Of a stretch of 64,000 nucleotides of DNA, positions 1-24,639 are shown piece by piece. The position numbers were made by a program, and so were the translations under genes. The notes beneath the pieces were generated by a model. It had not been told where the DNA came from. It ran no database searches and saw nothing but the letters and a program-made list of their open reading frames with translations. The stretch lies in assembly GCA_040007615.1 (NCBI GenBank), contig JBDTUQ010000002.1, positions 29,427 to 93,426 of the forward strand. Reading direction: 5' to 3'. The DNA comes from Novosphingobium sp. (GTDB lineage Bacteria > Pseudomonadota > Alphaproteobacteria > Sphingomonadales > Sphingomonadaceae). Positions within the stretch are counted from its first letter, which is position 1. Each line of letters opens with the position of its first letter.

Positions 1-3000
1 CAGATCGTGCCGCGGTTCGCGCCGCCGGAAATCAGGATGCTGCCGTCCGGTGCTTCGACAATGGCCATCGGGCCGATGCCGCCGTCGCTCTGGCCGATAC
101 CGGTGGCAAAGGCGCGTCCCGTGAAGGGCGTGAGCACAGCATCAAACTCGCTCGCCCCGGACAGCGCCACGGCCGCCGGGATGTTCGCCTCGGCAGCGGT
201 GAACAGCGCGTTGGTGGAGGGGACGACTGTTGGCTCGGGTGGCTGGCCAAAGTTCGGCGCGGTTGTGTCGGGCACGCTGGGCACACCGCCAAGGCTGACC
301 TTCGATCCATCGTCCACCGCATTGACGCCCGCCTTGGGCACTTCGCGGTTGCCTGCGACGTCAGTTGCCAGCGCGAGGAATTCGTAAGTCTTGCCAGGCT
401 CGCCCGTGAACACCAGCGAACCCGACGCCTGCGGCACCATGCGCTGCCAAATCTTGAAGTCGCCGCCATTCTCCGCAACGTAAAGCGTGACGTGCTTGAC
501 GCCCGATCCGGTGTTGTCGTCAGTGACGTTCCAGTCGATCGCGAAGTCATTGGTAGCCGCAATGCGCGTCGCGGTGATGTGGCTGCTGGGAGCTGTAGCG
601 TCGATTGTCTGCGTCAGTACGGTCGTGTCTTCGGGTGCAAAACCGGTCATGATGACCCGCGCCGAAGCACCGATGCGGTCACCCGTGGCGACAGTGTCTT
701 TGGGTTTGACCGAATAGTTTACGAAGCCCGCGCCGATCCCCGCCGCGTTGTTGGGCGCGAGAAGCCCGCGCGTCGCGTCTTCCAGCACTTCGCCGGTCAG
801 CGGATCGATGGCCTGAAGCACCCAGCTGGCCCGCGCCGGGCTTTGGTACATGTCCAGCACCGCGCTCACCCGCAGGATGAAGCCGCGTGTCTTGGAAAAG
901 TCGATCTCGGTCGAAAAGCTGGTCTTGCCGTCGGGCACCTTGATCGTGATGTCGCCGATCTTGATGTCGCCAAAGCTGAAGCTGCGCGGATCGAGTGAGG
1001 GATCAAGGTCCGTCACGATCCGCACTTCGTTTACCCAGCGGGCCGAGCCAGCAGCGTTCTCGAAGCCGACCGAATAGGGCAGCGTCGTCTGGTTGGGCAG
1101 CCAGCCCTGAGTGTCCAGAGTCTGCGGCCCGGTGATCGAGGCGAGGCGGCCGACATTGCCCTGGCCGGAATAGAACCGGCTGAAATCGAGCGCGGCGAAT
1201 TCGCTGCCGTCCACCGGCTCCGGCCCGTTGACCTGAAAATCCGCCGGAAGGCCGGACCCGCGCAGGGCGAAGTCCAGCCACGGCACGAAGATGCGCACTG
1301 ATTCAAAATAAGTCGATGCCGCCAGCGCGAGGTTGTAATCGGCAAATTTAGGCAACGCAGGCACGGGAATTTCGCCCACGTACCGATCGCTTTCGCGCGG
1401 GTCCATGAACTCGATCGGGGCCATCAGCCCATCCTGGTTGCCATAGAGTGTGCGGAGCTGATCGAAGAACCCGGGCAAGTCGCCGGTAGAGCGGATTTCC
1501 GAACCCGCCGGACCGAACAGGATTCCCGATGCCAGAGTCGCCATCAGGCTGACGATCTGCGTCTGTGTGCGGATTGGCGGGATCGCACCATCGGGGCGCA
1601 GCAGTCCGGCGGTTTCCAGCGAGGCGAGGTAGAGGTTGACCCAGTCGGTCTGGCTGGCCGCCAACGCCAGCAGCGATGGCGGGGCGCTGCTTGATGCCAG
1701 GATCGCGGTGCGCAAATCCAGCGCCTGTTTCGTCTGGAAGGCCACGAATTCGGCGCGCGTCATCGTCGTCGCCGCGGCCAGTATGTGGAAACGGAACGGG
1801 ATGAACGGGATCTCGTCCTTGCTGGGGATCGCCGCATTCTGCTTGTAAAGGCCGACAAAATCGAGGCCGTCGAGCACACTCTTCGAACCGGGAACACTGT
1901 CCTCGATCTTGTTCTTGGCCGCTTCCCACCACGCCGCCAGCGCGCCTTCACCTTGGGCCAGTACGCTGTCCAGTTCGGGGAACCGCGCCGCCATCTGCGC
2001 GCGGAACGTCTCGAACGCGCGGTCGGCCATTGCCTTCAGGCCGGGATAGGTCAGGATGTTGATGCTGAAACCGCCAAACCCGTCGGCAGGCTCGTCATAG
2101 AGGAAGCCGGAGGTGGTCAGTTGCCCGTTGACGTTGGTAACGGACTCCAGCCCGCTCCACGGCACAGCCGCGTTGGCCGATCCCGCTGCGCCATCGGGCG
2201 TGCCGCGCACGTTCGTGAAGAAGTTCAGGAACGGCAGGCCGTAGACATACTGGTTGTTGTTCAGTTCCGGCACGCCGACCTGGAAATAGGTATAGGGCGC
2301 ATCGAGGTTGGACAGGTTCTGCAAGGCCACCGAATAGGTAGCCTGATCGCCCGCCAGGATGACGCGCGGGCCACCCACGCCGATGGTGACTTCCGGCTCG
2401 ATCCCGCGTTCGATCAGGAACCGGTAAGGCTCGATCGTGGTCGAGCCATCGGGGTTGATGATCTTGACGTCATAAAGCCCGTGCGGCGCATCGGTGAAAT
2501 CGAAGGTGGCGATGATGGTGGTGGAATCGACCACCTTCCAAGCCACGGGTTCGTATTCCGCGATACCGGGCCGCGATACTTTAATGATCGCGCCGGGCTT
2601 GAACTGGCCGCCCTTGATCGTGGTGGTGACGAACTTGCCGTCGCCGCCGGTGTCAGTCTTGATATCGGTAATGACCAGCGGCATCAGATCGGCGAGCAGG
2701 GTAAGCTGCGACCCTTCCTGGCTGCCGCTGTAGCCGCGAACTAGCACATAATAGACGCCCGGCTGGGTGTCCGGTACGATGGCGGTCAGCTCCTGCGACA
2801 GCGGCCCGGTATAGGTCGCGTCGAACGCCGCCGATGTTGGCACCGCATCGTGGCGCAGGAACACCTCGTTGATGGCGCGCGCATCGTCGTCGCCGACGCG
2901 CAGACGCAGGGTCTGACCGGCGGGAACCTGGATCGCATAAAGCCTTTCCTCACCGGCCTTGAGATTGACCGTGGTCGGAATGTTCAGAGTCAGCGTCGGC

Positions 3001-6000
3001 ACCGAAACGCTCAGCGCACTGGGCGATGCGGTGGTGTTGTTCGACTCGCCGGTGTCTTCGTTCAGCTGGTTGCGTACATCGGCGCGCACGATCACCCGGT
3101 AATTGCCGGGCGACGCGCCGGGCAGCGTGGTCGTCAGGCTGAGTGTATAGGTGCCGTCAGGCAGCAGCGTGCCCGAGAAATCGCCCCGGCCCAGCAGGCG
3201 GTCGCCAATGTCCCAAGCCGCATCGCTAGACAGATAAACGCCGTCCGACCAGCTACCCGATGCGGTGACGGTGCTGGTGTTCTTGACCGTCCAGCTGATC
3301 GTTACCGGATCGCCAGGCTGCTTGTTGTCAGGCACGACGATGTCGGTGATCTGAATGTCAGTCGGCGGCGGCAGGTCGATGATCATGCGATCAGTGCTGC
3401 CAAGCGTGTTGTCGCGCTCGTTGGTTTCGAACACCTTGCCGGTGGTGTCGTACCGCACTGGATCGGTCACGACGAACACGTAATATGCCTGGGTGCCAAG
3501 ATCGCCCGGCAGCGCGAGGTTCAGGTTGACGTCATAGCTGCCGCCCGCCGCCAGTCCGCCGGAATGGGTGAAGCTGCCGACAAAACGGTCCGAGGTCAGG
3601 TCAAGGAACGGATCACGCGACAGGTAGACGAGGTCGTCCCAAGATCCCTGCAATGCTGGCGTGACGCCGCCGCTGTTGGTGACGGTGTATTGGACGGTAA
3701 AGCTCTGCCCCTTGACCGCGCGGGCCGGGGCGGTGAGCGATGTCACCTGAAGATTGGGCGCGCTGTAGGGCAGAATGGTGACGGCCCCGGCGGTGGTGTT
3801 GTTACCCTCACCCTGAAATTCACGCACCGCGCCCGCCGCACTGCCGCGAACGCCCCGAAGGCGCGAGGACAGCGACGAAGTGGAGAACCCGGACTCGCCC
3901 AGCCCGGAATCGGCCACAGCAATGACGTTGAACGAACCGTGCAGTTCGAACGGCACTGTCACCGTGGCAGTGGCGATATAGGATTGCCCTGCCTTCAGCC
4001 CGCCAGTGTGGACGTTCTCCGCCTTCACCACTACACCCGGCGACGTTTCCTGCGACATCAGCCAGTCGCCCTCGTCGAGTGAAGGATCGAGCGACAGGTA
4101 AAGCCGGTCAGTCCAGCTATCCTCGCGCGTGTCACGGTTGCCGACGTTCTCGACCTTGAAGCTGATAGTGTACGTCTGGCCGGCCTGGAACGTGTTCGGC
4201 ATGGTCAGCGCGGTAACCTTGAGGTCTGGCTCGCGGTAAACGACCGGGAAGGTGCCCTGGCCCATGTTGCCCTGCGGCAGTTCATAGGCGGCGCGCTGGA
4301 AGGCGGCATTCAGGTCTGAATTGTCGCCACTGCTGGGTAGGAACGATGTCCCCACATTGCCCACGACATTTGTGAAGACATAGACGTAGTATTGCCCCTC
4401 AACCCCCGGTGGCAGGGCGAACTGGGCGGTGTTGCTGTAGCTGGCCCCGCTTTTTAGACCGTTGCCCGGCTGGTTGACTGTCGCCACCAGTTGCGCGCGG
4501 CCTGCGATGAAGCTGGGGTCCTTGGAAATCCACACCTGGTCCTGCCAGTATTGCGTGCCCGACCAGACATCCGCGCCATCGTTGCGGACGGTGTAGCTGA
4601 TGCTGGTCTTCTCGCCCGAATAGGCGGGGCTGGCGGGAGCAGAGGGAACGACGCTGACAACGGTGAGGTCGGCAACCGCGTTCGTCACCAGCGTGCTGGT
4701 GAACTTCTGGTTGTCGAGCGTGTTTGTATCGCCCGCCAGAGAGGACCTGACGATGATGTACTTGCCCTCCGCCGCGACGTTCAAGCGGACGCTGGCGGAA
4801 TTGGTATAGCTCTGGCCAGGATCGAGGGGCTTCAGGTTATCAAAAGTGCCGAGCGCGAAGACCTTGGTGGCGTTTTCCAGCAGCGGTGCGTCAGCCAGAT
4901 AGACCTGGTCGCTCCAGCCGTCAGCAGTGGAATCGCCGCCAGCCTTGACTGTCCAACTGAACGCGAAATTGTCGCCCCCCTTGGCCGAAGCGTCTGCCGT
5001 CACCGACTCGACGCTGATTGCACGGGTGGTCTGCGCCGCCGCTGGAGTACCGACGATCTGGATCGCCCGCGCACGGTAGTTGCTGGAATTGAGCTCTGCC
5101 GGATCATCAGGGTTGATATTGGTGACCAGCGGGTCTTCGAGCAGCGTGCCGAACGGATCGACCCACGGCGTGATGTAGTACGTGCCCGAGATCACATGAT
5201 CCGGCAGCGTTACTGTCAGCACCCGGTCATAACCCTGACCGACAACCAGCGGCCCGCCGGTGTATTGCAGGCTGGTCAGCAGGATGTCGCCCTGGCCCGG
5301 ATGCGGCCGGTTCTTGTCGCGCGTCAGCCAGATCTGTTCGGTCCACGCCCCCAGATCGCTAGTGCCCGACCCGCGATTGGTGACGGTGTAGTTGACCGAA
5401 ACCGTGTTGCCCTCAAACGCCTGCGTCGGCACAGCAACGCTGTCGACGACAAGGTCGGCAAACGGGATTGGATCGACATAGATCGGCGTGACGGTGACGT
5501 TGCTGGCGATGGTATCGTTCGGCCACTCATCCACCGCGTTCCCGGCGTCGACCTGGGTGAGGATGTAGACCGTACCGCGAAACCGCTTTGGCACGGTGAA
5601 GGTGCCCGATGCCGACGTGTATTCCTCAAGGCTGCCGAGCGCGCTCTGGTTGACGAGCGAGGAGACGAGGATGTCGTCGCTGGTGAGCTTGTCATCCAGC
5701 GACAGATAGACACGGTCGTTCCATACGCCATTCGCGGCAACAAGGCCCTGATTGGTGACGGTGAACTCGATCGACGCCGTCGCACCGGCGCTGACGTGTA
5801 CCGGAGCAACAACGTTGCTGACGCGCAGATCGGGCCGGGGCAAGGTCGCCACCAGGATCGCGGAATCGTCAACCAGGCGGTTGTTGCCTTCCGACGTATA
5901 TTCATAGACGCTGTTGTCGGCGTCGGTGACGACGACGATTTCGTACTGATCGGACGTGTGCAGCGGCAGCCGCATTTCTTCCTTGCGGCTATAGCTGGTG

Positions 6001-15000: not shown

Positions 15001-18000
15001 GCAAGTTGCCCGTTGAGGTAGATTTTCTCCGTGCCCGCCGTCCGGTCAAGCACCGCTGCCACGTGGGTCCACTGGCCAAAGGCGACGGATCCGCTGGCGG
15101 TCTGTAGATATTCGTCACCCGATGTGCTCTGGCTGGAGAGCAGGACAGACTGGTTCGCATTGAACCAGACGCTGTACGTGCGCTGGCTGGAGTCCGTGCC
15201 CTTGTAGACGATCGGCACCCAGGTATCGTGCGCTCGGTCGGGATTTATCCAGAACTCCACGGTCACCTGATCGCGGATATCCAGCGCAGGGTTGTTCAGC
15301 TTGACCTGTTCTGTGCCCGTAAGCGCGATGGCGTTGCCGACTTGTCCGGTGCGTAGTGACGACTGGCCGGTCGACCCGGTGATGTCGATGGCCTGCACCG
15401 TGGAATTGGAGCGATAGAGCGCGAACGTATAAGGCCACGTCGCCGTCCCGTCCCACACACGTCCTTCGACCAGTACGGTGTAGGTCCCGGTTTGCCCGGC
15501 GGTGAACTCTGTGTTCTGGAAACCTGTGGGGTTGGCGATCTGGTGCCCGGCAGGGTCGATGATCCGCAGCGAGGCATAAGGCAGGCCTTGCCTGACCTGC
15601 AGGAACACCTGGTCGCCAACAGTGGCGGTGAACTGATAGCTGTCCGTCTCGTTAGCAGGGGTCAGCGCGGCACTGACCGGCGTGGCATAAGAGATAGGCT
15701 GCGCGGCGGCCATGTCGAGCAGGCGGAAGCTGGCCGGACCGGTGGCGCCGTTGTTGCCCGTGATCTTGACTGTGTAATCACCCGCCGCCAGCGCGAACAC
15801 GCGGTCGCCATAATCCTCGAAGGAGTCAGTGTAATAGAACTGGTCTGAGCGCACCACGCCTGACGGGCCAGTGATCGTCCAGGTCAGGTTAGTATCAGGC
15901 GTCATCGAATCGAAATAGAACTTGCCTGACTGGGCAAGGGTGAACGTGTAGATGCCGGTTTCGCCCGGCCGCGCAAGGCTGGCTGCAACGGTCTGCCCCA
16001 CGGTCATGGCGATCGGTGCAGGATCGACGGGCCGGTCAAGGATAAACGAATAGGTGCGCTGAGGGGTCGTGTCCCACGGGCGACCTTCCACCAGCAGCGT
16101 ATACCGCCCGGTGAAGGCGGTGGTGAAGCTGGTATTGGCAAAGTCCAGCGCGCCGCTGGCATCGCGTCCGAACGGATCGAGCACGCGGATACTGGCATAG
16201 CCCGGAGCCTGCACAGAACTGAACGAGAACTTGTCGCCTGCAGTCGCCTGGAAAGTAAAAATGTCGGTTTCGGAAGCAGGCAGCAACGTGCCGCTGACCG
16301 TCGCTCCCGCAGCGGGGAGCAGCTGGGCGGATGCTGCGTCTAGCAGGCGGAACGAATAGGCTCCGGTTGCCCCGTTGTTGCTACTGACGGTGAATTCGTA
16401 ATCGCCCGGCGCGACGAGAAAGCTGGACGGGGCGCTGCGCTCGTAACTGTCTGAATTGCGGAAGTTGCCAGACGCAGAAACGCCCGCTCCCTGCATTGAC
16501 CAGTTGATCTGGCTGTTGTCAGTCAGGCTGTCGAACTGGATCGTCGTCGGCGCGGTGACGGTCAGTTTGTATCGCTGCTTGTCGCCAGCACCGGCAATCG
16601 AGCCATCGACTTGCGTGTTTGCCGAAATCGTTATGGGCGCGGGGTTCTGCGCGCGGTTAATCCTGAAGCCGATGTCGTCACTGCCGCCGTTATAGACGCG
16701 CCCTTCGATCAGCACGGTATAAGTGCTGGTCGCGGGCAGAGTGAAGGGCAGTGTGTAAAGGCTGGTCGGTCCGATCAGCATCCGGCCCGAGGAATCGAGC
16801 AAGCGGAACGCGAAATCGGCGTAATTGTTCAGCGTGAACCAGACTGTATCATCCTTGGTGCCAGTGAACGAATAGGCCAGCGTCGATGAATTGGGGTTGA
16901 GAACGCCATCAACCTGGGTGTTGGCAGTGGATACCGGCGTGGCATTCGCCAGATCGAGCATCCGGAACGAATAGGCCCCCGCCGATCCGGTGACTCGGAT
17001 CTGGTAAGTTCCCGCGACGGGCAAAACCAGGGCATTGTTGCCGCCGACTTCCCAGGCGTCGCTGTAATAGAAAGCGCGTGAAGCTTCCTGACCGCGCGGG
17101 CCGACCAATGCCCACGACTTGCCGCCGTCAGGGGTGAAGGAATCGAAATAGAGCGTCGTCGGCGTAGCGGTGGTGAAGGTGTAGAGTTTGGTATCGCCTG
17201 AACCCGCAAGCGTACCTGAAACTGTCGCGCCCAGGCTGAGCGCGGTGCCCTGCGACAAATCGGCAGGGGCGACAAATCCGGTCTTGTGGACCTTGAAACT
17301 GTAGTTGCGCGGGGTGCCGTCCCATACCCGGCCTTCGATCAGCAGGGTATAGGCGCCGGTCATCGTGATGGGCAGTGGATAGTCGCTGCCGAAATAGTCC
17401 TCGGCAACCTCGCGCCCGGTGGGATCGAGCAGGCGCCAGAACAGGTTGTCAGAGTTGCGCCCGACAACGCGCTCAAGCTGGATGACATCACCCGCCTGCG
17501 CATTGAAGGTGTAGGTATCCGTCTCGTTAGAGGGCTGCGTCTGCCCTAAAACCTCGGTGTCGAGCGCGACTGGCACGGCGCTGCCCATATCGAGCATGCG
17601 AAAGGCATAGGCCGCAGCGGTGACTATGGTGCTGTCAATCGTCAGTTCGTAATTGCCTGCGGGCAGATCAAGCACGCCGGGTCCGTAGAGTTCCGGGCCA
17701 TCGGAATAATAGAACGTGCGGCTGTTGATTTCCACACCGCGCGGACCGGTCAGCGTCCAGTTGAGGCTGCCGTCCGGCGTCTGGCTATCGAACACCAGCT
17801 TGCGTGCGGTGGCCAGCGTGAAGGTGTACTTGTCATGCTGCCCACGACCCAGAGTTGCGCTGACCGTGGTGCCGAGCACAAGCGCGGCGGTATTGTCCAC
17901 CAGATTGCTGACGGCATACTGAAAGGTAGACGGTCCACCGTCGTAAATCCGGCCTTCTACGGCGATCAGATAGTCGCCGGTCTGCGGCAGGTTGCGCAGT

Positions 18001-19961
18001 TCCAGGTCGGAAATATGCGCTGGCCCCTTCAGAACAGTGCCATCCGGATTATAGACGCGGACGCTGATTTCGTCGCCAACCTGGCTCTTAAGTTCAAAAT
18101 AAAGCCCGGAGCCAGCGGTAGCCGAAACGCGGTATAGGCGCGTCTCAGTGGCGGGCGTGCTGGTGACGGTGGCGGCAAGACCACTTGGCGAAAGATCGGC
18201 GCTGCTGGCTCCATTCTGCTCGTCAAAGCGCCAGTAGCCAACAATCCCGGCCTGCGCCGCGCTGAGCGGGGAGGCGAAGGCAGCCGACAATTCCGCTGCC
18301 GTGCGCGTGACGTTCCATACGCGCACTTCGTCGATCATGCCGTTAAACAGGTATGATCCCGCCGGAGAGGCACCGATCGCCAGCGCGCCACTACTCTGGT
18401 TGATCGGCGCGGAATAAGCCTGCTGGGCTACCTGCTGGCCATTGATGAACAGCCGCAGCGTGCTGCCGTCATATGTGCCAGAAACATGCTCCCACACGCC
18501 GGTGGGCAGCGGCGCTTCTACATAGGCGCCGTTCCAGTTGTTGACGAAGAACCGCACGTTGCCGCCAACACGGATCAGGCCATAGCCATCGCTCCAGCCG
18601 GTGTCGGTCGTCTTGGTGACGATGCCCTGGTAATAATTGCCAGACTGTGGGTTTATCCAAGCCTCCAGCGTCAGGTTGGCCGGGCGGAGCGCCGCGTCAT
18701 CAGGCACCGAAAGGCTGCCGAGCACATTGACGTCCCACGCGCGGTTGGTCATGCCCGGAAGACCGGAATAATCCATCGGAGCACCGGCAGGACGCTGTCC
18801 GGCCTGAGCCAGCCCGGCATTGCCAAGCGTGGCTGAAAAATTGTCGCCGGGATTGACGGTTGTTGCCAGCGCGCTGTCGATCAGGCGGAAGGCAAACGGT
18901 CCGGCGCGGTCATAATCGGCGTAGACCGTCAGCTTGTAACTACCCGCTGCCAGATCGAGCAGAGGATTGCCGTCATAGGAATCGCTCGACAGGAAATCAC
19001 GTCTCGAAACCACAGTCCCGCGCGGACCGGTGAGGGTCCAGTGGAATGAAGACCGGTTAAGCAGCGTATCGAATAGCAACCGACTGTCGCTTGCCAGATC
19101 GAACGAATAAGTCACCGTACTGCCGGGGCCGGAGATGGAATCCATCACCGTTTGACCAATTGATAAACTGGCCTGCGTGTTGGTTACGCGATCGACGCTG
19201 AAACTGTAATCAAAGGGAGAATTGTTATAGACCCTGCCTTCCACGGCCACCGTATAAGTGCCGCCCTTGTTCAACTGAAAAGGGCCGGAATCGCTGAATC
19301 CGGTTGGCCCGCTGACCAGTTCGCCGTCCGGGCCGATCAGCCGCCAGCTTACCGATTGGCCTGAAAGCTGCTGGGTATCGAAGAAGAAGCTCTCGCCCGC
19401 GGCCACGTCGAATGCGTAAAGATCCGTCTCGCGACCGGCATTGTGCGCGCTTACCGTCTGCCCCAGCGCGATGTGATCGGCATTGGCAAGGTCGAGCAGG
19501 CGGAAATCATAGGCCCCTGTGGTACTGGCATCGCCGTCCACGCTCAGGGTATAAGTGCCGATCTGCAGGTCCAGCACATTGGACCCGCCGATGTCATAGC
19601 CGTCCGACCCCGCCAGCGAGCGGTTGGCAACTACATTGCCGTTTGGTCCGGCCAGCGACCATTTGATCGAGGAGTTGGCGGTCAGCGAGTCGAACGCGAT
19701 TTTCTTGGGTTCGGTAAGGGTGAATGAGAATTGATCAGTCTCACCCGGAACGTCGATTGCGCCTGAAACGGGGGGCGTATCTGCAGACAGCAACAGCCGT
19801 GGTTCAAGCGACTCGATGGCGAGTCGGCTAGACAGAATGGTCGAATTGCGCAGGGCAGCGCGGCGGTTAGTCTGCCATGCTTCACCCAGCGCAGCGAGGC
19901 GGGGAAAACGCAAACGACGGGGATCGTTCGATTTCGCAGTAAGTCGCGCGTCGTGGAACAC
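1..19961 (-). CDS. Giant LEPR-XLL-motif extracellular/adhesin-like protein, >6,650 aa, C-terminus beyond the left window edge
   Basis: The minus frame with first codon base = 2 mod 3 reads VFHDARLTAK...SRLAIESLEPRLLLSADT near 19961-19780 and, in the same frame, VEAPDGSILISGGANRGTIW at 59-1. The intermediate segments I translated are all coherent in this frame. No ORF-track minus ORF within 1-19961 uses this frame, consistent with no internal stop. GTG at 19961 has a GGGGGA RBS-like motif; the nearest upstream in-frame stop is at ~20055. Confidence 0.93.
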   Translation of the reverse strand, partial: MFHDARLTAKSNDPRRLRFPRLAALGEAWQTNRRAALRNSTILSSRLAIESLEPRLLLSADTPPVSGAIDVPGETDQFSFTLTEPKKIAFDSLTANSSIKWSLAGPNGNVVANRSLAGSDGYDIGGSNVLDLQIGTYTLSVDGDASTTGAYDFRLLDLANADHIALGQTVSAHNAGRETDLYAFDVAAGESFFFDTQQLSGQSVSWRLIGPDGELVSGPTGFSDSGPFQLNKGGTYTVAVEGRVYNNSPFDYSFSVDRVTNTQASLSIGQTVMDSISGPGSTVTYSFDLASDSRLLFDTLLNRSSFHWTLTGPRGTVVSRRDFLSSDSYDGNPLLDLAAGSYKLTVYADYDRAGPFAFRLIDSALATTVNPGDNFSATLGNAGLAQAGQRPAGAPMDYSGLPGMTNRAWDVNVLGSLSVPDDAALRPANLTLEAWINPQSGNYYQGIVTKTTDTGWSDGYGLIRVGGNVRFFVNNWNGAYVEAPLPTGVWEHVSGTYDGSTLRLFINGQQVAQQAYSAPINQSSGALAIGASPAGSYLFNGMIDEVRVWNVTRTAAELSAAFASPLSAAQAGIVGYWRFDEQNGASSADLSPSGLAATVTSTPATETRLYRVSATAGSGLYFELKSQVGDEISVRVYNPDGTVLKGPAHISDLELRNLPQTGDYLIAVEGRIYDGGPSTFQYAVSNLVDNTAALVLGTTVSATLGRGQHDKYTFTLATARKLVFDSQTPDGSLNWTLTGPRGVEINSRTFYYSDGPELYGPGVLDLPAGNYELTIDSTIVTAAAYAFRMLDMGSAVPVALDTEVLGQTQPSNETDTYTFNAQAGDVIQLERVVGRNSDNLFWRLLDPTGREVAEDYFGSDYPLPITMTGAYTLLIEGRVWDGTPRNYSFKVHKTGFVAPADLSQGTALSLGATVSGTLAGSGDTKLYTFTTATPTTLYFDSFTPDGGKSWALVGPRGQEASRAFYYSDAWEVGGNNALVLPVAGTYQIRVTGSAGAYSFRMLDLANATPVSTANTQVDGVLNPNSSTLAYSFTGTKDDTVWFTLNNYADFAFRLLDSSGRMLIGPTSLYTLPFTLPATSTYTVLIEGRVYNGGSDDIGFRINRAQNPAPITISANTQVDGSIAGAGDKQRYKLTVTAPTTIQFDSLTDNSQINWSMQGAGVSASGNFRNSDSYERSAPSSFLVAPGDYEFTVSSNNGATGAYSFRLLDAASAQLLPAAGATVSGTLLPASETDIFTFQATAGDKFSFSSVQAPGYASIRVLDPFGRDASGALDFANTSFTTAFTGRYTLLVEGRPWDTTPQRTYSFILDRPVDPAPIAMTVGQTVAASLARPGETGIYTFTLAQSGKFYFDSMTPDTNLTWTITGPSGVVRSDQFYYTDSFEDYGDRVFALAAGDYTVKITGNNGATGPASFRLLDMAAAQPISYATPVSAALTPANETDSYQFTATVGDQVFLQVRQGLPYASLRIIDPAGHQIANPTGFQNTEFTAGQTGTYTVLVEGRVWDGTATWPYTFALYRSNSTVQAIDITGSTGQSSLRTGQVGNAIALTGTEQVKLNNPALDIRDQVTVEFWINPDRAHDTWVPIVYKGTDSSQRTYSVWFNANQSVLLSSQSTSGDEYLQTASGSVAFGQWTHVAAVLDRTAGTEKIYLNGQLAASRTVSGTQAYGQADSPLYISGTIETDDSLGRLEGALDEVRVWHGARSAADIQTDMMNGPPANATGLVARLPFDSLSGGTTPETVSGGSASVLRDFAGLPGTVEGRLAVPGDKRTYTFTLAAPTTLEFDALYDNDQINVTLTGPGGLSITRNLRNGDSFELGGENPVFTAQAGQYTVTVDGNSAATGTFAFRFLDLATAPKVTLDTALSATIAGGRENHAYRFDVTAGQRVFIDGQAISAPGDRISLRLIDPYGRQVTGPVTFGDIDTGVLAIGGTYTLLVESRAWRDWPIDYRLAFYLAGVNGAPTAITLDGINPQQPHVEPGRNGNALSLSGVEYVEVPNAVAPAPQRDFTLEGWYRLDRMTDNYVVLATKGDADTQKVPYHISLGSDGQINFLTGDTSGNQGVSTTAGAFTFGQWVHIAAVVDRTAGTQKIFVNGVEKASATIRTNDNIVNSDPLLFGMYPHARTDIGSIEGAIDTVQMWGTARTAAQIAADMNAPSPTGTAGLLYAMDFESATLPGGAILHAMNPNGVTGKISHAGEEKLYTFTLAAATSVYFDSETNNGGLLWTLTGVDGDVVTKRRFDQSDSIDFGPTPAMNLAAGTYTLKVSGSGDGTGNYNFRLTDLAAATPLMLGTPVTVALDPAKLTNAYKFNAQAGEKFYFDALAVQSEVYWRLLDPSGKTVFGPTGINDIDGITLDRAGTYTLLLEGRVHQGSQAGYSFAVYSEGGQTTTPLTLGLHVAGSIAKPGESDRYSFTLAQPSQLVFDALSAAQQFNWTLTGPGGMVVNSRNFYSTDSADFGPNPVLNLVAGDWVLTVDIGGDTTGTYDFRLLDLGAAEVLSPGGTLNRTIAQAGRETATYKFDVTQGTRFGFSITQQPSGDLRWRLIDPLGQVVFGPSSPADTGLLTATMTGTYKLLVEGRIYNNGDVNYGFRFDQPVAVPANGQTAQTFDSAGLPYVLVNHFGAAAQVLTGTGGNFVRLTDVLHSNLQNSVVFSATGTGRQDSVDLGFDFRITRQPGATTDPDGISFAFLPVAQYGISGPGPQVGVEANVPGALGLGFDTFNNGEVNGNHISIHYNGVKIGEIANPGITLASGAWAHARVLLTRTTGGTLLTIELTPTGGSAVTATSNFFIGGMELEAGRVLLSGYQGGSIGDQDVDNVSVAMTAAAAATPPLTLDATQTGTIAVAGAADRYAFTVTQPTPVIFDALTNNGELRWQIVGPTQTGGLHVFTQTDSAENGGNPVMVLQPGTYNVIISANAQSTGSYAFRVAALSSAQDVISGQPITLTLNPGNATAMYKFTASAGQKVYFDAISGSGEPYWRLIDPTGNVVFGPNYGRYDIEAPALPIDGTYTLLVEGRIWSGAPQTLTFAVDTMVDTAAALTIGATTSGTITNPGDRTRYSFSLAQNSRLLFDSLLNNASFNWTLTGPTGTLDSRDFARSDAFNRPDAEVIYAPQGSYTLTIDADADQTGNFAFRLLDLASAAPLPIDSQTTGTLNPGNANAVYSFTGAQGDRMFFDYLSTTGYGTWRLLDPTGKLVFYNSYQTDVGPVTLPRTGTYTLLFDGRVDEPVPVVDYAFKVSRIVDKTATLTLGQTFTGSLDQPRQSELLTFTLAGPTQIFVDALNNYGDVSWSLSGPQGTVDTRNFNASDSWNYGPSPVLVLPAGAYTLRVTNNSAAARPFSIRVSDMANATPITPGVPVSGTLSPGSEAKFYRFNATAGERFFFDQQAQSGVNSTWRLIGPNGQQLFHSDFNSDVDTMTLADAGTYTLIIDGYIAYDNAIGTYTFNVFENTIQSPVIISSLQYVPSPDLAPTALAVSSVGQIQSGSTVTLSWKTTNSGTLPTAASWTDRIIVRNTDTNEIIGNILIADTAGPLAAGAERQRQTTVTLPTGNRGTGNISFTVTSDVANTISEANLAGTGENNNSASVAVVSTLAPVIDLTVGNVVPEPAEGWQPGDTVTVHWQTTNAGNLATTAGMSERITVRNVTSNQQVVVLTVPLAATIDAGATVDRSATITWPAGLSAFGSFDFTVTTDILDEIVEANDAGTGETNNASTTSVTSAPDLQIRNFAIATANPSAGDTVTLNWDEANTGNAATAGGWTNRVLVENIDTGAVILDLSVPTGTALAAGQQRSRTFAFALPQGQKAVGNVRVTLVVDSDVGGAAGTVREVVSGINAEANNAASAGVTVAARNYPDLQVTGVTAPSNASGGDTITVNWNVINAGNTGTGSGWSDRVVLSSDAVFGNADDFVLGNFANNGPLAVGGQYAGTASVVLPSNIAGNYRVYVVADPAFAIIEPDTRADNVGAPAVIALSSQAPNLVAEAVFGPADPVAGGQPFNVSWRVRNTGTLAAPGGHIDRLVLSADGIYDSGDLVLGEVVRSGALAPGDSYSVAFDARVQDGRTGSFRLILVTDAGQTVFENLQEADNAGVSAPITLAPAPSANLVVDSVTVPADAIAGQTVAVTYVVRNAGTVTASAPWTDTIYFDTDTTVSGSRNLASVSRTFALAPGDSYTVTQNVTLPTDYADGDTLILVRADSSSQVFEAGQEADNDGASAVLALTHPDLTVSALAGPVGGTAQSGSTFDVNWTVRNNGSGATAAGWTDTVWLSRDGVIGAGDIKLGTVTALGSLAAGATRDVTLSVTLPIDAQGAYKLIVRTDDADVVAETVGEGNNTSAIDLTVGLAPYADLDVSNVTAPSRKIADPAHVTVGWKVTNSGTGAGITSSWTDSVIVSADDVFGNGDDVVLGQLVHSGGLALGASYDASLDLILPPGFYGHYTLFVRSDSKGEVFENGADGNRGFLTGPFDVSPILWADLVVNTVVTPDSGASGTDLAVTWTVANQGIGLTNVAEWFDIVWLEKTDGTGRIKLGAVNHLGFLATGDSYQRSASFRLPDGISGNYRVVVEAPGSSNPGSGPYEFIYGDNNTATSAPISVSLSPPPDLKVTSISAPTNGTEGQVVDIQWTVQNDGTSDANGSWVDKVYLRKVGDTGAGTLIGTYSYTGPLQAGTSYSRKEEMRLPLHTSDQYEIVVVTDADNSVYEYTSEGNNRLVDDSAILVATLPRPDLRVSNVVAPVHVSAGATASIEFTVTNQGLVAANGVWNDRVYLSLDDKLTSDDILVSSLVNQSALGSLEEYTSASGTFTVPKRFRGTVYILTQVDAGNAVDEWPNDTIASNVTVTPIYVDPIPFADLVVDSVAVPTQAFEGNTVSVNYTVTNRGSGTSDLGAWTEQIWLTRDKNRPHPGQGDILLTSLQYTGGPLVVGQGYDRVLTVTLPDHVISGTYYITPWVDPFGTLLEDPLVTNINPDDPAELNSSNYRARAIQIVGTPAAAQTTRAISVESVTADASAKGGDNFAFSWTVKAGGDSTADGWSDQVYLADAPLLENATKVFALGTFDNLKPLDPGQSYTNSASVRLNVAAEGKYIIVRSSLAGDTNTLDNQKFTSTLVTNAVADLTVVSVVPSAPASPAYSGEKTSISYTVRNDGADVWSGTQYWQDQVWISKDPSFIAGRAQLVATVNQPGNGLKSGASYSNTAQFALPPGVEGQYYVYVFTNVVGNVGTSFLPSSGDNSDLNAAFQRAAYELPQGNMGQGTFPVVYREPDLKVTALTMPNTFQAGQTYTISFKVENVGNRDTREDSWTDRLYLSLDPSLDEGDWLMSQETSPGVVVKAENVHTGGLKAGQSYIATATVTVPFELHGSFNVIAVADSGLGESGFSTSSLSSRLRGVRGSAAGAVREFQGEGNNTTAGAVTILPYSAPNLQVTSLTAPARAVKGQSFTVQYTVTNSGGVTPALQGSWDDLVYLSRDPFLDLTSDRFVGSFTHSGGLAAGGSYDVNLNLALPGDLGTQAYYVFVVTDPVRYDTTGKVFETNERDNTLGSTDRMIIDLPPPTDIQITDIVVPDNKQPGDPVTISWTVKNTSTVTASGSWSDGVYLSSDAAWDIGDRLLGRGDFSGTLLPDGTYTLSLTTTLPGASPGNYRVIVRADVRNQLNEDTGESNNTTASPSALSVSVPTLTLNIPTTVNLKAGEERLYAIQVPAGQTLRLRVGDDDARAINEVFLRHDAVPTSAAFDATYTGPLSQELTAIVPDTQPGVYYVLVRGYSGSQEGSQLTLLADLMPLVITDIKTDTGGDGKFVTTTIKGGQFKPGAIIKVSRPGIAEYEPVAWKVVDSTTIIATFDFTDAPHGLYDVKIINPDGSTTIEPYRFLIERGIEPEVTIGVGGPRVILAGDQATYSVALQNLSNLDAPYTYFQVGVPELNNNQYVYGLPFLNFFTNVRGTPDGAAGSANAAVPWSGLESVTNVNGQLTTSGFLYDEPADGFGGFSINILTYPGLKAMADRAFETFRAQMAARFPELDSVLAQGEGALAAWWEAAKNKIEDSVPGSKSVLDGLDFVGLYKQNAAIPSKDEIPFIPFRFHILAAATTMTRAEFVAFQTKQALDLRTAILASSSAPPSLLALAASQTDWVNLYLASLETAGLLRPDGAIPPIRTQTQIVSLMATLASGILFGPAGSEIRSTGDLPGFFDQLRTLYGNQDGLMAPIEFMDPRESDRYVGEIPVPALPKFADYNLALAASTYFESVRIFVPWLDFALRGSGLPADFQVNGPEPVDGSEFAALDFSRFYSGQGNVGRLASITGPQTLDTQGWLPNQTTLPYSVGFENAAGSARWVNEVRIVTDLDPSLDPRSFSFGDIKIGDITIKVPDGKTSFSTEIDFSKTRGFILRVSAVLDMYQSPARASWVLQAIDPLTGEVLEDATRGLLAPNNAAGIGAGFVNYSVKPKDTVATGDRIGASARVIMTGFAPEDTTVLTQTIDATAPSSHITATRIAATNDFAIDWNVTDDNTGSGVKHVTLYVAENGGDFKIWQRMVPQASGSLVFTGEPGKTYEFLALATDVAGNREVPKAGVNAVDDGSKVSLGGVPSVPDTTAPNFGQPPEPTVVPSTNALFTAAEANIPAAVALSGASEFDAVLTPFTGRAFATGIGQSDGGIGPMAIVEAPDGSILISGGANRGTI
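3000..9590 (-). repeat. Array of ~17 CARDB-like Ig-fold repeats (~125 aa each)
   Basis: (P/A)(D/N)Lx(V/I) starts at ~9585, 9195, 8822, 8425, 8055, 7685, 7325, 6953, 6575, 6197, 5828, 5452, ~5020 (degenerate), 4667, 4222, 3750 and 3357. Units typically contain V-x-W-T-V-x-N-x-G, W-x-D-x-(V/I)-x-L-S and E-x-N-N motifs. Confidence 0.85.
9620..19770 (-). repeat. Protein-level array of 12 diverged ~205-aa two-part beta-sandwich repeats (PPC-like), with lectin-fold inserts
   Basis: A mid-unit motif of the F-R-L-L-D-L type occurs at ~19500, 18885, 17600, 16960, 16345, 15720, 14425, 13135, 12510, 11200, 10575 and 9955. Most units also carry WTLTGP, WRL(I/L)DPxG and (V/I)EGR motifs. Confidence 0.85.
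19779..19814 (-). other. LEPR-XLL motif (ESLEPRLLLSAD), around residues 50-61 of the giant protein
   Basis: Direct translation. It matches the LEPRxLL / planctomycete-extracellular N-terminal motif of giant proteins. Confidence 0.9.
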
Positions 19962-20100
19962 GATGATCCCCCAGTCTTGCAGCAGGCAAGTCTTGTCAGC
20001 ATGAAAGGTGGCGTCCGGCGAGCGTGCCCAGCCGCTGGCCCCCAGTCCTCCCTAATCAATACGTGATTATTGTTGCCAAACAAAGCTAATTTCAAGTGCT

Positions 20101-20137
20101 CTGTTATTAGGCCTATTTTGTAAGCACCTGATAACAG
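20101..20137. promoter_or_regulatory. Candidate operator dyad in the AT-rich divergent promoter region
   Basis: CTGTTATTAGG-N15-CCTGATAACAG, an 11-bp inverted repeat with 1 mismatch. Confidence 0.35.
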
Positions 20138-20221
20138 GAATTATCTTTTCCCATTCTGGGGCACCAAATGGTGATTGGTTCTTTACCCTTTGCTTGATGC
20201 GTGGCATTGACTGATGCCGAC

Positions 20222-21166
20222 ATGGATCGACGATTTGCTTTGACGATCGGGGGAGGGGCTCTGGCGGTGGCTGCGGCGATTGCTTTTGCATATTCCGGCG
20301 ATGATGATGGCGGGCCGGTGCGCGAAGAGCGGCCGAAGCCCATTGCCGCCGTGCAGGCCGTGCAACATCTCGATCGCCCTACAGCTGCGGTGACCCCACC
20401 GGGCCTTGATCCCGCCCGTCCGACTGATTGCCTGATAGAACCAAGTCAGGTGGTGAAGGTTAACAGCGGGGTCGAAGGCGTGATCGCGGCGATTTATGTA
20501 GACCGGGGCGATGTGGTCCATCGCGGCCAGGTCGTGGCCCAGTTGCGGGCCGATGTTGATCAGGCCAGCCTTGCCGCCGCGCAGGCCAAGGCGGGCAACG
20601 TCTATACCGAACGCGCCGCCGCCAGCCGCGCTGTCTATCTCGATGCCGTGCGCAAGCGTAGCGAACAGATCGGCCAGTACCTTGCGCGTGATAATGTCGA
20701 GGAAGCGCAGGCCAACGCCCGCGCCGCTGCTGAGGAACGCAATGCCGCCCAACAGGAACGCCGCGTGGCGCAGCTGGAATCGGTGCAGCACAGCCGCATA
20801 CTTGGCGAAAAGACCGTGCGCAGCCCAGTCAACGGCATCGTTACCGAACGCGCCATGTCGCCCGGCGAGTATCGCGGGTCAGACGCTTCGCATATCCTGA
20901 CCGTGGCGCAAGTCGATCCACTGAACGTCGAAGTATTCGCACCGATTGCCCAGCTTGGCTCGGTCTCGATTGGCCAGTCGGTCAAGATATTTCCCGAACA
21001 GCCGGTTGGCGGCGAATACGTGGCCCGGATCAAGGTGATTGACCGGGTGTTCGATGCGGCCAGTGGCACGTTTGGAATGCGTCTGGAATTGCCTAATCCC
21101 GGTAATCGCCTGCCTGCGGGGCTGCGATGCCGGATCGAAATCGGGACCGCGCACAAAGGGGGCTAA
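20222..21166 (+). CDS. HlyD/RND-family periplasmic adaptor (membrane fusion protein)
   Basis: N-terminal TM segment, lipoyl-like hairpin (GVIAAIYVDRGDVVHRGQVVAQL ... VRSPVNGIV), helical hairpin, and a beta-barrel with DRVFDAASGTF...LPAG. ATG 20222 preferred over GTG 20201. Confidence 0.92.
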   Translation: MDRRFALTIGGGALAVAAAIAFAYSGDDDGGPVREERPKPIAAVQAVQHLDRPTAAVTPPGLDPARPTDCLIEPSQVVKVNSGVEGVIAAIYVDRGDVVHRGQVVAQLRADVDQASLAAAQAKAGNVYTERAAASRAVYLDAVRKRSEQIGQYLARDNVEEAQANARAAAEERNAAQQERRVAQLESVQHSRILGEKTVRSPVNGIVTERAMSPGEYRGSDASHILTVAQVDPLNVEVFAPIAQLGSVSIGQSVKIFPEQPVGGEYVARIKVIDRVFDAASGTFGMRLELPNPGNRLPAGLRCRIEIGTAHKGG

Positions 21167-21168
21167 TC

Positions 21169-22755
21169 GTGTATTCTGACAGGGGAACCATCAGGCCAGC
21201 CGCACTTCAACGCCGCCTAGGGCTAACTGTTTCGGGCGCTTTGGGCATGTGCCTGGCGCTCATCTCATCCGCGCAGGCAACGACCATGCAGGAGGCGCTG
21301 GAAGCCGCCTATCAAAACAATCCAAAACTTACCGCGCAGCGCGCCAACGTGCGCGTTGCCGACGAAAACGTGCCCATCGCCCGCGCCGCCTCCATGCCGG
21401 TGATCGACGGCACGGTCAGCTATCAGGAAAACATCCTGAAGGGTGACAACCCGCCGGGCGGCTTCGTCTCCGATCCTGACCGGCAACTGGTTGGCCAGAT
21501 CAACGCCACGCTTCCGCTGATCACATTCGGGGTCAACAAGTGGGGAGTCGCCGCCGCAGACGAGCGGGTCAAAGCCAGCCGTTATGGCCTGCGCGGCGGC
21601 GAGGCGGATCTGTTTACCGCCGTAGTCGGCGCTTATATGGATGTTATCCGCGACGAGGCCGTAGTCCGCCTGAACCAGCGTAACACCCAAGTCATCGGCT
21701 TCAACCTTCAAGAAACGACAGACCGCTACAAGGCCGGCAATCGCGGCCCAGCCGATGTCGCGCAGTCAGAAGCGCGGCTGTCGCTGGCACAGGCGCAATC
21801 GGAAACCGCGCAGTCAAAGCTGATTACCAGCCGGGAATCGTTCATCCAGCTTGTCGGCAGTGAACCCGGCGTCCTCGCCCCGCCGCCGCCTTTGCCCGAA
21901 CTGCCAACCGATCCCAACGTCGCGGTCGAATATGCGCTCCAGAACAATCCCAATATCCTGGCGGCCATGTCGCAGCGGATTGCCCTGTCTGATGATGTCC
22001 GCGTGGCCGATGGTGAGCGCAAGCCCCGGCTTGAGGCGCGGGCGTCGCTCAACCACTACGATTATCTGAACTCGCTCGCTCCCGGCACCGGGCCGCGCAA
22101 TGGGGACCGGGGTACCACGGCGAACGTCGGCGTGGCGCTGCGGGTGCCGCTCTTTTCCGGCGGCAGGCTGTCCGCGCTCTACCGTCAGGCAGTAGAGAAG
22201 GAAGGCGTTGGCGTCGAACAAGTGGTGGAGGCACAGCGCACGGTCGTTGCGCAGACCCGCTCTGCCTTTGCCACCTGGGTTGCGGCGCAGCGCGTGATCG
22301 CTGCTGCCGAACGCGGCGCGGCCGCCAACCAGCGAGCACTTCAGGCGCTTGGCGCGCAAGTTGATGCTGGTGTGCGCCCCTTGCTCGACAAGCTGAACGC
22401 CGAGCAGGAATTGCTAAACTCGCAAGTCACGCTGGTGACTGCGCGGCGCGACGCTTATGTCGCGGGCTTCGCATTATTGGCAGCGATGGGCCGGGCCGAG
22501 GCCAAGGATCTCAACTTCGAATCCAGCCGCCTCTATGATCCAACTGTCCATTACGACAAGGTGCGCAACCAGATATTCCAGTTAAGCGACCAGCCGGTCC
22601 CTGCCGCGAAGGCGCAGGGCACCAGCGGCACCCGGCCACAGGACGCGCAGGTTACTCCAGCTGACGGCGGCGTCAGCGACCCGGCGCTGTCGATCCGCAG
22701 CGATGCTTCCCCAGCAGCCGCTCCCGGTGGTCAGATAGCAGTTTCAAAGCCTTGA
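21169..22755 (+). CDS. TolC-family outer membrane efflux/type I secretion protein
   Basis: Signal peptide, then TMQEALEAAYQNNPKLTAQRA, VPLFSGG and LDKLNAEQELLNSQ motifs. GTG start lies 2 nt after the adaptor stop. Confidence 0.92.
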   Translation: MYSDRGTIRPAALQRRLGLTVSGALGMCLALISSAQATTMQEALEAAYQNNPKLTAQRANVRVADENVPIARAASMPVIDGTVSYQENILKGDNPPGGFVSDPDRQLVGQINATLPLITFGVNKWGVAAADERVKASRYGLRGGEADLFTAVVGAYMDVIRDEAVVRLNQRNTQVIGFNLQETTDRYKAGNRGPADVAQSEARLSLAQAQSETAQSKLITSRESFIQLVGSEPGVLAPPPPLPELPTDPNVAVEYALQNNPNILAAMSQRIALSDDVRVADGERKPRLEARASLNHYDYLNSLAPGTGPRNGDRGTTANVGVALRVPLFSGGRLSALYRQAVEKEGVGVEQVVEAQRTVVAQTRSAFATWVAAQRVIAAAERGAAANQRALQALGAQVDAGVRPLLDKLNAEQELLNSQVTLVTARRDAYVAGFALLAAMGRAEAKDLNFESSRLYDPTVHYDKVRNQIFQLSDQPVPAAKAQGTSGTRPQDAQVTPADGGVSDPALSIRSDASPAAAPGGQIAVSKP

Positions 22756-23876: not shown

Positions 23877-24015
23877 TGACATGCAGTGCCCAAGGCGCAA
23901 GCGCGGGAGAACGGGAAACGGCGCTTTCTCAAGTCATTGGACAAACAATGTCAATGGACTCGCACATCTCATGCGGGTGAGCGCGGGCTTTGCGGCAGAC
24001 TTTCGATTTCTGTCG

Positions 24016-24639
24016 TCAGGCCGACTGCGCTGGCGGTTGGTCGATCCAGCCGCTGCCGGTGACCAGCCTTTCTAGCGTAGCCTTGAACCAATCGACAATC
24101 TTGGCCTGATCCATCGTTTTCGGCAGCGGCAATTGCCGGGCATAGATCACGTATCCCGTGGCGACCATCGCGATGGCAAGAGCCCGCTCCGTAGCATCCT
24201 CGCCGCCCAGCCACTCGGCCAGGGGTGTCAGGCTATGCTTGGTCATGCATCGCGCAGCAATTTCCGCGGCCTCTGTATCGCCGGATGCCAGCGCGACCAT
24301 CATCGGCAAGCTGATTACATCGACCGGGTCCAGCAATACAGTCGCCACGAACTCGGCATAGTCAGCTTTGCTTATCCCTGCAGCGAGCCTCTGGCCCAGA
24401 GAGATCTCTATAGCCTCTTCGAACAGATGTGCCTTGGTACCGAAATAGCGTACAATCAGAGGAGAGCTCACTTCTGCCAGCTTCGCGATGTCGCGGATGC
24501 CGGAATGCGAATAGCCCTTTGTGGAGAAAGCCTGCTGCGCCGCAACCAGAATGCGTGCCCGGGTGGCATCTGCATCACGCTTGTGCCGCGAAACACTGCG
24601 CCCATTTAATTCATGGTCGCCGCCGAGTGCCGAAGCCAT
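24016..24639 (-). CDS. TetR/AcrR family transcriptional regulator
   Basis: TRARILVAAQQAFSTKGYSHSGIRDIAKLAEVSSPLIVRYFGTKAHLF HTH. Confidence 0.92.
   Translation of the reverse strand: MASALGGDHELNGRSVSRHKRDADATRARILVAAQQAFSTKGYSHSGIRDIAKLAEVSSPLIVRYFGTKAHLFEEAIEISLGQRLAAGISKADYAEFVATVLLDPVDVISLPMMVALASGDTEAAEIAARCMTKHSLTPLAEWLGGEDATERALAIAMVATGYVIYARQLPLPKTMDQAKIVDWFKATLERLVTGSGWIDQPPAQSA

Follow-up and report, generated by a model that had tools for sequence, protein, structure and literature searches.

How might a bacterium carry a protein of more than twelve thousand residues out through a diderm envelope? The question is raised by a locus in a Novosphingobium sp. of the Sphingomonadaceae (assembly GCA_040007615.1, contig JBDTUQ010000002.1, here C2), known from a metagenome-assembled genome of 2.34 Mb in 85 contigs that is 90.8% complete. 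We analyzed a stretch of 64,000 nucleotides, C2:29427-93426 (the window, in which a coordinate equals the C2 coordinate minus 29426), and extended the analysis leftwards along the contig. The left end of the window holds about half of a gene for a giant LEPR-XLL protein, divergent from a gene pair for a periplasmic adaptor and a TolC-family channel. We consider it reasonably probable that this locus encodes a dedicated TolC-dependent exporter without an ATP-binding cassette (ABC) transporter, guided by a leader and driven by a SecA paralogue, and that its cargo is the 12,385-residue LEPR-XLL protein. A sequence-only reading of the window had proposed a dedicated TolC-dependent pathway that recognizes an N-terminal motif. 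Comparative genomics partly supports this export interpretation: a conserved locus, co-occurrence of tag and module, a leader-binding type of domain, and the lack of a type I ABC transporter speak for it, while the suggested role of the cargo as adhesin or surface filament remains a guess from its domains.

The giant LEPR-XLL protein and its leader

A single open frame of about 20 kb coding for more than 6,650 residues had been described in the window. The N-terminal 6,653 residues of the protein do lie there (window 3..19961, minus strand), starting from a GTG at 19961 and running off the left end. Extension along the contig, as that reading had advised, followed the frame to C2:12233, with the cassette genes directly downstream. 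The complete gene (C2:12233-49387) spans 37,155 nt, encodes 12,385 residues and reaches 17.2 kb beyond the window's left edge; it contains no N and no stop, stops in the frame having been named as a ground for rejection. Since a stop-free frame of 37 kb is colinear with orthologues of 40-57% identity over more than 10,600 residues, a chance origin is ruled out. The lack of cysteines and of repeats-in-toxin (RTX) nonapeptides, noted at first for translated parts only, holds for the whole protein, which has 0 Cys, 0 GGxGxD and one HExxH.

The leader region, residues 1-62 (window 19776..19961, minus strand), is defined by a hidden Markov model (HMM), LEPR-8K, and a conserved block. Its first 52 residues are basic, with 10 Lys and Arg against 4 Asp and Glu, and its end is the conserved block RRAALRNSTILSSRLAIESLEPRLLLSAD. 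The LEPRLLLSAD motif singled out in the sequence-only reading occupies residues 52-61, and the NCBIfam model LEPR-8K (NF012209) matches residues 47-68 with 25.5 bits against a cut-off of 17; in a six-frame search of the genome with the same model, the same protein scores 29.7 bits. This N-terminal match above the curated cut-off, on a very long, repeat-rich protein of extracellular type, places it in the LEPR-XLL family. The genome has one such protein and one cassette.

A block of the form (S/T)xLxxRLxhExLEPRxLLSAD, following a basic stretch, is conserved in 15 other LEPR proteins and heads unrelated mature parts of 3,275, 7,155 and about 12,500 residues. Because the same leader block stands on different mature proteins, it behaves as expected of a sorting signal. 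We considered a twin-arginine translocation (Tat) or Sec signal and rejected both, as the arginine pair is unconserved and the leader has no hydrophobic h-region; no N-terminal hydrophobic signal was found in the giant protein.

The cassette and its conservation

One minus-strand operon carries, in this order, the giant gene and the genes for a DUF3467 protein, a GAF-HlyD adaptor, an RRE-M50-HlyD fusion and a SecA paralogue, with three of the four junctions overlapping or nearly abutting. An M50/HlyD fusion and a SecA-like ATPase, as in similar loci, had been suggested as possible neighbors to the left, and both are present, 17-24 kb from the window's edge.

The fusion (717 residues; C2:7798-9951, minus strand; start set by a conserved MANPF of its orthologues, 61 codons into the longest open reading frame) combines an N-terminal domain of about 100 residues, a polytopic membrane domain and a periplasmic HlyD part, assigned with Pfam and NCBIfam. 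As a single sequence, its N-terminal domain matches Pfam PqqD with just 14.4 bits; a profile of 23 orthologues aligns residues 13-94 of 95 with PqqD (3g2b) at E = 8.5e-6. The AlphaFold model of the domain, with a predicted local distance difference test score (pLDDT) of 79, is made up of three strands (24-31, 34-41, 47-50) and a three-helix winged helix (52-58, 67-81, 85-97), and Foldseek matches it to 6jx3_B, 5v1u, 4v1t and 5why with probabilities of 0.97-1.0. Among these matches are lasso-peptide B1 and TbiB1, solved with leader peptides, as well as LynD and CteB. Profile and model together point to a PqqD-like recognition element (RRE) of the kind found in enzymes for ribosomally synthesized and post-translationally modified peptides (RiPPs), with a predicted role in leader binding. 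Its place at the N-terminus of the fusion offers a concrete reader for the proposed recognition of an N-terminal motif. The membrane domain has at least five transmembrane-like segments (residues 152-454) and both metal-ligand motifs of a site-2 protease (S2P) intact, HELGH at residue 210 and NPLLRFDG near residue 325. Judged by its scores, the protease is a homologue, not a member, of the curated M50 and daptide families.

The SecA paralogue (673 residues; C2:5784-7805, minus strand) starts 8 nt inside the end of the fusion gene. It aligns with residues 44-654 of the genome's own 927-residue SecA at 38% identity, and with residues 22-547 of Bacillus subtilis SecA; the canonical gene lies on contig C1. 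Both nucleotide-binding domains are retained (MATGEGKT, DEAD, TNMAGRGTDI), with Walker A, DEAD and motif VI intact, as is the preprotein cross-linking domain (SecA_PP_bind, 5.6e-27). As the paralogue ends just past the start of the scaffold helix, it is without the helical wing domain, the two-helix finger and the zinc tail. It has kept an ATPase motor and a preprotein clamp and has lost the parts that engage SecY.

The remaining members of the operon are smaller or less distinctive. The GAF-HlyD adaptor (617 residues; C2:9959-11812, minus strand; Pfam and NCBIfam domains) has one transmembrane helix and is separated from the fusion gene by 7 nt. The DUF3467 gene (111 residues; C2:11898-12233, minus strand) has its start codon overlapping the TGA of the giant gene as ATGA, and its product is conserved over the full 80-residue core, unlike a RiPP precursor. 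Its AlphaFold model (pLDDT 68) shows four strands and a long helix. A SecB-like chaperone was considered for this protein and dropped, since the model has no fold match in the PDB (best E = 0.83) and the sequence has no relative there.

On the other side of the giant gene lies the divergent pair described in the sequence-only reading. The intergenic region measures 239 bp (window 19962..20200) instead of the 260 bp given there, and contains a sigma-70-like site by consensus match only (TTGAAA-18-AATAAT, 20095->20066 on the minus strand), about 105 nt 5' of the giant gene's GTG. The first gene (window 20201..21166, plus strand) encodes a 321-residue periplasmic adaptor, or membrane-fusion protein, with one N-terminal transmembrane helix at residues 11-32 and matches to HlyD_D23 (1.4e-18) and RND_mfp (1.1e-29; 103.5 bits against a cut-off of 94.9); it corresponds to the cassette's "small HlyD/Biotin_lipoyl" protein. 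Overlapping it by 40 nt, the second gene (window 21127..22755, plus strand) encodes a dedicated 542-residue TolC-family channel protein of the outer membrane (OEP, 1.7e-51; TIGR01844, type_I_sec_TolC, 242 bits against 225). A second, housekeeping TolC on contig C7 shares 43.5% identity with it.

A type I secretion ABC transporter is not recognizable in the assembly. Its three ABC_membrane exporters reach at best 338, 328 and 208 bits, where the cut-offs for the HlyB, PrtD and LssB types stand at 725, 510 and 693; they look MsbA- or CydD-like, and none has an adjoining HlyD gene. No ABC exporter occurs at the locus on the 50 kb examined, and the giant protein shows neither an RTX signature nor a C-terminal one of type I secretion. 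A canonical RTX C-terminus beside a PrtD/HlyB-type transporter, which would have turned the locus into an ordinary type I adhesin system, was accordingly not what we found. The assembly has one SecY and no second copy, and the paralogue stays under the cut-off of every SecA2 model, for example with 518 bits against 1085. Three HlyD-type membrane-fusion proteins and a TolC-family factor are shared with classical type I secretion, but the locus is without that system's defining ABC transporter and C-terminal or RTX signal, and it also falls outside accessory Sec.

The arrangement is widely kept. A synteny scan using one genome per species gave 32 loci with a fusion 43-72% identical to the present one, 29 of them with usable orthologues, from Sphingomonadales, Rhodobacterales, Chromatiales, Sedimenticola, Methylococcaceae and Hydrogenophaga. 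Wherever a 10-kb flank existed, the order giant open reading frame, DUF3467, GAF-HlyD, fusion, SecA paralogue was retained. In six sphingomonad loci the adaptor and TolC genes adjoin the SecA paralogue; an adaptor comes after the paralogue in one locus each of Chromatiales and Hydrogenophaga, and the Hydrogenophaga locus also has, upstream, a weak match of TolC type. In the present genome the adaptor-TolC pair, to judge from this gene order, has moved to the opposite side of the cargo gene. At E <= 1e-30 the fusion family comprises 3,994 representatives at 50% identity.

The cargo is conserved along with the cassette. LEPR-8K scores above its cut-off in 19 of 21 genomes (this one and 20 carriers of the locus), and most of these matches fall in open frames of 12,236-13,174 residues whose coordinates run into the cassette. 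The giant protein aligns end to end, in single high-scoring segment pairs of more than 10,600 residues, with proteins that are 57% identical in Sphingobium and 40% identical in both Lutimaribacter and Sedimenticola, the last a gammaproteobacterium. As it aligns in this way, it is not a free-running repeat protein; it may be described as an orthologue of fixed architecture that is shared horizontally. A cultured member of the Rhodobacterales, Thetidibacter halocola KMU-90, has three separate LEPR-tagged frames of 12,463-12,907 residues (C1:206140, C2:181367 and C5:13443 of that genome), amounting to more than 110 kb of coding sequence.

Tag and machine also co-occur across the class, in 201 evenly sampled genomes that represent 197 genera. 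Twelve of the 16 genomes with the fusion have a LEPR match and four do not; among the 185 without it, eight have a match and 177 have none (odds ratio 66, Fisher p = 3e-11, a statistic that ignores phylogeny in a sample where nearly every genome is another genus). Fusion and LEPR match lie no more than 15 kb apart in at least five genomes.

Proposed routes of export and competing explanations

We propose the following sequence of events. The RRE domain would bind the LEPR-XLL leader at the inner membrane, with the chain possibly still nascent. The SecA-like motor would then thread this chain, unfolded and free of Cys, into a conduit with its N-terminus leading; the M50 membrane domain would form the conduit together with the three membrane-fusion proteins, which would be docked to the dedicated TolC, and the M50 protease would cut off the leader. 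Outside, the Ig-like, CARDB, PPC and LamG modules would fold to give a giant surface or extracellular protein. Accessory or gating roles may fall to DUF3467, which is translationally coupled to the cargo, and to the cytoplasmic GAF domain. With an N-terminal signal, export may start before translation of the 37-kb message ends, which by our estimate from typical elongation rates would take about a quarter of an hour. Export, leader cleavage and coupling of the ATPase by this cassette are all predicted. The stronger proposal, that the locus represents a distinct and as yet unnumbered diderm secretion system, in which an RRE-S2P protein captures the tag and a motor-only SecA paralogue pushes the chain N-terminus first, possibly co-translationally, through a three-adaptor/TolC conduit, is one that we advance tentatively.

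Several points weigh against a dedicated, SecA-driven exporter for the giant protein. The four cassette-bearing genomes without a LEPR match break the association from one side, and the eight cassette-free genomes with one break it from the other, although the latter matches are weak and mostly in short frames. At 91% completeness of the assembly, a missed ABC transporter is not fully excludable. Foldseek E-values for the RRE matches are marginal (0.01-0.08), and the protease falls short of its nearest families, with 23.3 bits against a cut-off of 27.2 for Pfam Peptidase_M50 and 135 bits against 300 for daptide_HExxH (E = 2.6e-39). No component of the locus is known as an inner-membrane protein channel, a gap that Kamneva et al. 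(PMC4452313) also raised. The direction of transport and its coupling to translation are purely what we infer, and a 2026 preprint (10.64898/2026.03.19.712371) proposes C-terminus-first export for its LEPRxLL giants.

The missing channel lends itself to a two-step alternative, in which the cassette only targets and processes: the RRE-M50 protein would trim the leader, the SecA paralogue would deliver the giant to SecYEG, and the adaptors and TolC would serve for crossing the outer membrane. The genome does have a normal SecY and a full-length SecA, the paralogue retains the preprotein cross-linking domain, and an obvious inner-membrane protein pore is not encoded at the locus. Against this, the leader is without a hydrophobic h-region, the paralogue has shed just those parts through which canonical SecA contacts SecY and SecB, and three adaptors anchored in the inner membrane suit a one-step, type I-like conduit. 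We therefore regard delivery to SecYEG as unlikely, if still worth serious consideration.

A second alternative keeps the machine and reverses the thread. Export would be post-translational and C-terminus first, and LEPR-XLL would be a tag for retention, anchoring or maturation instead of an export signal. Studied systems of TolC and membrane-fusion proteins thread their substrates in this direction, the preprint on Chlorobium proposes it for the LEPRxLL giants, and giant type I adhesins such as LapA have an N-terminal retention module. This reading sits poorly with a C-terminus whose last ~1,000 residues are the least conserved of the protein and whose last ~100 cannot be aligned between orders, and with the absence of RTX repeats; a leader-binding RRE and a SecA-type motor, moreover, both engage unfolded chains at N-terminal or at internal segments. 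It strikes us as slightly less probable than the SecYEG route.

It is also conceivable, but improbable, that the cassette serves the export or maturation of another product, for instance a small RiPP-like peptide, that the adjacency is non-functional, and that the giant leaves the cell otherwise or stays inside. The nearest named relative of the RRE-M50 part is indeed a RiPP leader peptidase (daptide_HExxH, 2.6e-39), and the four cassette genomes without a LEPR match would fit. Synteny with the LEPR giant nevertheless persists in two classes of Proteobacteria whose proteins are 40% identical, the start codon for DUF3467 shares nucleotides with the stop codon of the giant gene, and no other export route was found in the assembly; nor is any small leader-bearing open reading frame conserved at the locus, where DUF3467 itself is conserved in a manner unlike that of a RiPP precursor. 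That the giant frame arose through misassembly or belongs to a pseudogene in decay, a suspicion natural for a repeat-rich gene in a metagenome-assembled genome of 85 contigs, is very hard to reconcile with 37,155 nt free of stops, end-to-end colinearity with intact frames of 12,296-13,174 residues in isolate genomes and other metagenome-assembled genomes, and the presence of the stretch in contigs from three separate rhizosphere runs.

The dedicated exporter that we favor resembles several known systems without coinciding with any. Like type I secretion (HlyB-HlyD-TolC, or LapB-LapC-LapE with LapA), it has an adaptor-and-TolC duct and a huge, Cys-free substrate of Ig-like repeats that is presumably unfolded; it differs in having three adaptors instead of one, a SecA-type motor in place of the ABC transporter, and an N-terminal leader where type I substrates have RTX or a conserved C-terminal signal. 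Leader-dependent exporters (CvaAB-TolC and peptidase-containing ABC transporters) and the daptide HExxH peptidase NF041824 likewise have a leader read and cut by a machine-borne protease, and RiPP enzymes share the leader-binding RRE fold of the fusion's N-terminal domain. In contrast to these bacteriocin exporters and RiPP peptidases, the cargo here has 12,385 residues and no double-glycine site, the protease is an M50/S2P-type metalloprotease and not a C39 cysteine protease, and a SecA paralogue would be the energizer. Accessory Sec systems of Gram-positives and mycobacteria (SecA2 or SecA2/SecY2) also devote a second SecA to a few unusual, often very large surface proteins, but here SecY2 is missing, the paralogue is truncated at its C-terminus, and it has adaptors and TolC for partners, within a diderm envelope.

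The closest precedent is a gene set that Kamneva, Poudel & Ward described in silico in 2015 (PLoS One, PMC4452313), exemplified by Methylobacterium extorquens AM1 META1p2399-2402: a truncated SecA_DEAD paralogue, Peptidase_M50/HlyD, GAF/HlyD and small HlyD/Biotin_lipoyl proteins, sometimes OEP/TolC, and no ABC transporter. Those authors considered its role "completely unknown" and gave no substrate; the SecA paralogue, in their suggestion, takes the place of the ABC ATPase, and the M50 protein might make up the pore. The present locus has the same composition, with a SecA_DEAD paralogue beside a canonical SecA and M50/HlyD, GAF/HlyD and HlyD/Biotin_lipoyl proteins encoded together. It differs in being tied, physically and phylogenetically, to a LEPR-XLL giant, in the RRE-like domain of its fusion and in the addition of DUF3467. 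A full-text literature search found no paper linking this gene set to LEPR-XLL proteins and none on the locus after 2015 beyond self-citation, and LEPR-XLL itself was mentioned in passing only. The earlier description of the system as poorly known is therefore fair as regards role and cargo, neither of which we found in print, and needs correction as regards the gene set.

The second precedent concerns the cargo. In Chlorobium chlorochromatii, the LEPRxLL giants Cag_663/Cag_665 are reported to be expressed, to leave the cell by an unidentified route and to be passed to the partner cell; a secA gained by horizontal transfer is reportedly expressed along with them, and a sap-like type I route has been proposed (10.64898/2026.03.19.712371). 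They share with the present protein an N-terminal LEPRxLL domain (of 24 residues), an adjacent tolC and the lack of a known transport signal. Their fold is a beta-helix and their length 20,647-36,806 residues, and an M50-HlyD/SecA-like module is not discussed by the authors. New with respect to both papers are the cargo assignment, the reading of the fusion's N-terminal domain as an RRE, the recognition of DUF3467 as a conserved cassette member, and the length-conserved family of ~12,400-residue orthologues common to Alpha- and Gammaproteobacteria.

Cargo architecture, genomic setting and significance

Behind the leader, residues 63-3,457 (window 9591..19775, minus strand) form a PPC-like (pre-peptidase C-terminal) array interrupted by three Laminin_G_3 domains (Pfam Laminin_G_3, 4.6e-76 in three stretches; PPC, 3.3e-6). 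A CARDB array follows at residues 3,458-5,655 (window 2997..9590, minus strand; Pfam CARDB, 1.9e-105), with boundaries drawn from sequence landmarks and 12 stretches passing the threshold. The last part inside the window, residues 5,656-6,653 (window 3..2996, minus strand), has no confident Pfam or PDB match and belongs to the best-conserved portion of the protein. Beyond the CARDB array the protein continues in a long stretch without confident matches, beta-propeller-like parts included; a PDB sequence search returned nothing for residues 5,650-6,650 and 9,100-10,640. Pfam finds arrays of He_PIG, Big_9, cadherin-like and PKD domains at residues ~7,100-8,000 and 11,170-11,900; Big_2 domains, an OmpA-like domain and a C-terminal cohesin also occur, together with weak dockerin-like and RHS-like signals.

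Conservation among four orthologues from two classes peaks at residues ~4,300-6,900, the end of the CARDB array and a stretch of ~1,200 residues without a confident match to a family or structure, where 40-60% of the columns are invariant; this is probably the functional core. The C-terminal tail, rich in Lys, Arg and Glu, is not kept among the orthologues.

Some local features of the giant protein deserve mention in their own right. An OmpA-like peptidoglycan-binding domain (C2:17,225-17,650; residues ~10,650-10,790; Pfam OmpA, 1.7e-7) is an insertion of ~145 residues, absent from the Sphingobium, Lutimaribacter and Sedimenticola orthologues, that could tether this lineage's giant protein to the cell wall. 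Residues 9,005-9,054 (C2:22,225-22,375) form a Gly/Ala-rich hydrophobic hairpin of two transmembrane-like segments with a conserved AVGGLxG core, whose character is preserved in all four orthologues of an otherwise soluble protein. The motifs THGF, GHSRGT and TTLDPHD at residues ~9,850-10,000 (C2:~19,300-19,900), invariant in four orthologues, are similar to motifs of alpha/beta-hydrolases, namely those of the oxyanion, the nucleophile elbow and the acid. A profile of the four orthologues found no PDB or Pfam match, so a lipase or alpha/beta-hydrolase reading was set aside as a lead at the level of motifs. The single HExxH, at residue 10,927, reads HEMGN or HESGN in Rhodobacterales and Sedimenticola and, being unconserved, was rejected as a general catalytic site for a protease.

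The surroundings are those of an ordinary chromosome. Right of tolC, at window 22764-28498, is a cluster of cell-wall enzymes: a SleB-like hydrolase on the minus strand, an SLT_2 lytic transglycosylase, an RlpA-like protein with DPBB and SPOR domains, and a PBP5-type D-Ala-D-Ala carboxypeptidase. An open reading frame of 372 residues at window 28989-30107 (minus strand) has a gene-like GC content at third codon positions (0.75) and no Pfam match at E <= 1e-5. The core alphaproteobacterial genes hflX, ntrX, ntrY, ntrC, dus and gyrA, at window 34299-44417 and 50286-53042, place the giant locus in the chromosome backbone with no obvious mobile element; on the far side, phoR and then pstCAB-phoU come after the SecA paralogue gene. 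Despite this backbone position, the phylogenetic spread of the giant locus implies horizontal transfer. GyrA shares 84-88% identity with its counterparts in Novosphingobium genomes and metagenome-assembled genomes, so that the organism ranks as a Novosphingobium-like sphingomonad. The stretch was found in four DNA runs, all of them rhizosphere metagenomes, and in no RNA run.

LEPR-XLL, an N-terminal tag of bacterial proteins that rank among the largest known, has been an orphan, and the SecA_DEAD/M50/HlyD locus an orphan machine since 2015. If tag and machine are partners, they would constitute a TolC-dependent exporter run by a SecA-type ATPase and not by an ABC transporter or a resistance-nodulation-division (RND) or major facilitator superfamily (MFS) pump. 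An N-terminus-first route would explain the export of proteins whose length runs from 12,000 to over 30,000 residues, giants that would be impractical to finish and keep unfolded for a type I system reading a C-terminal signal. Leader recognition by RRE domains would extend from small RiPPs to megadalton proteins. The fusion family occurs in harmless strains that can be cultured, and carriers of this kind include Sphingobium indicum BiD32, Sphingobium sp. AS12 and Oceanicola granulosus HTCC2516; the making and placing of giant surface proteins, including those reported to pass between the partners of a consortium, would become testable.

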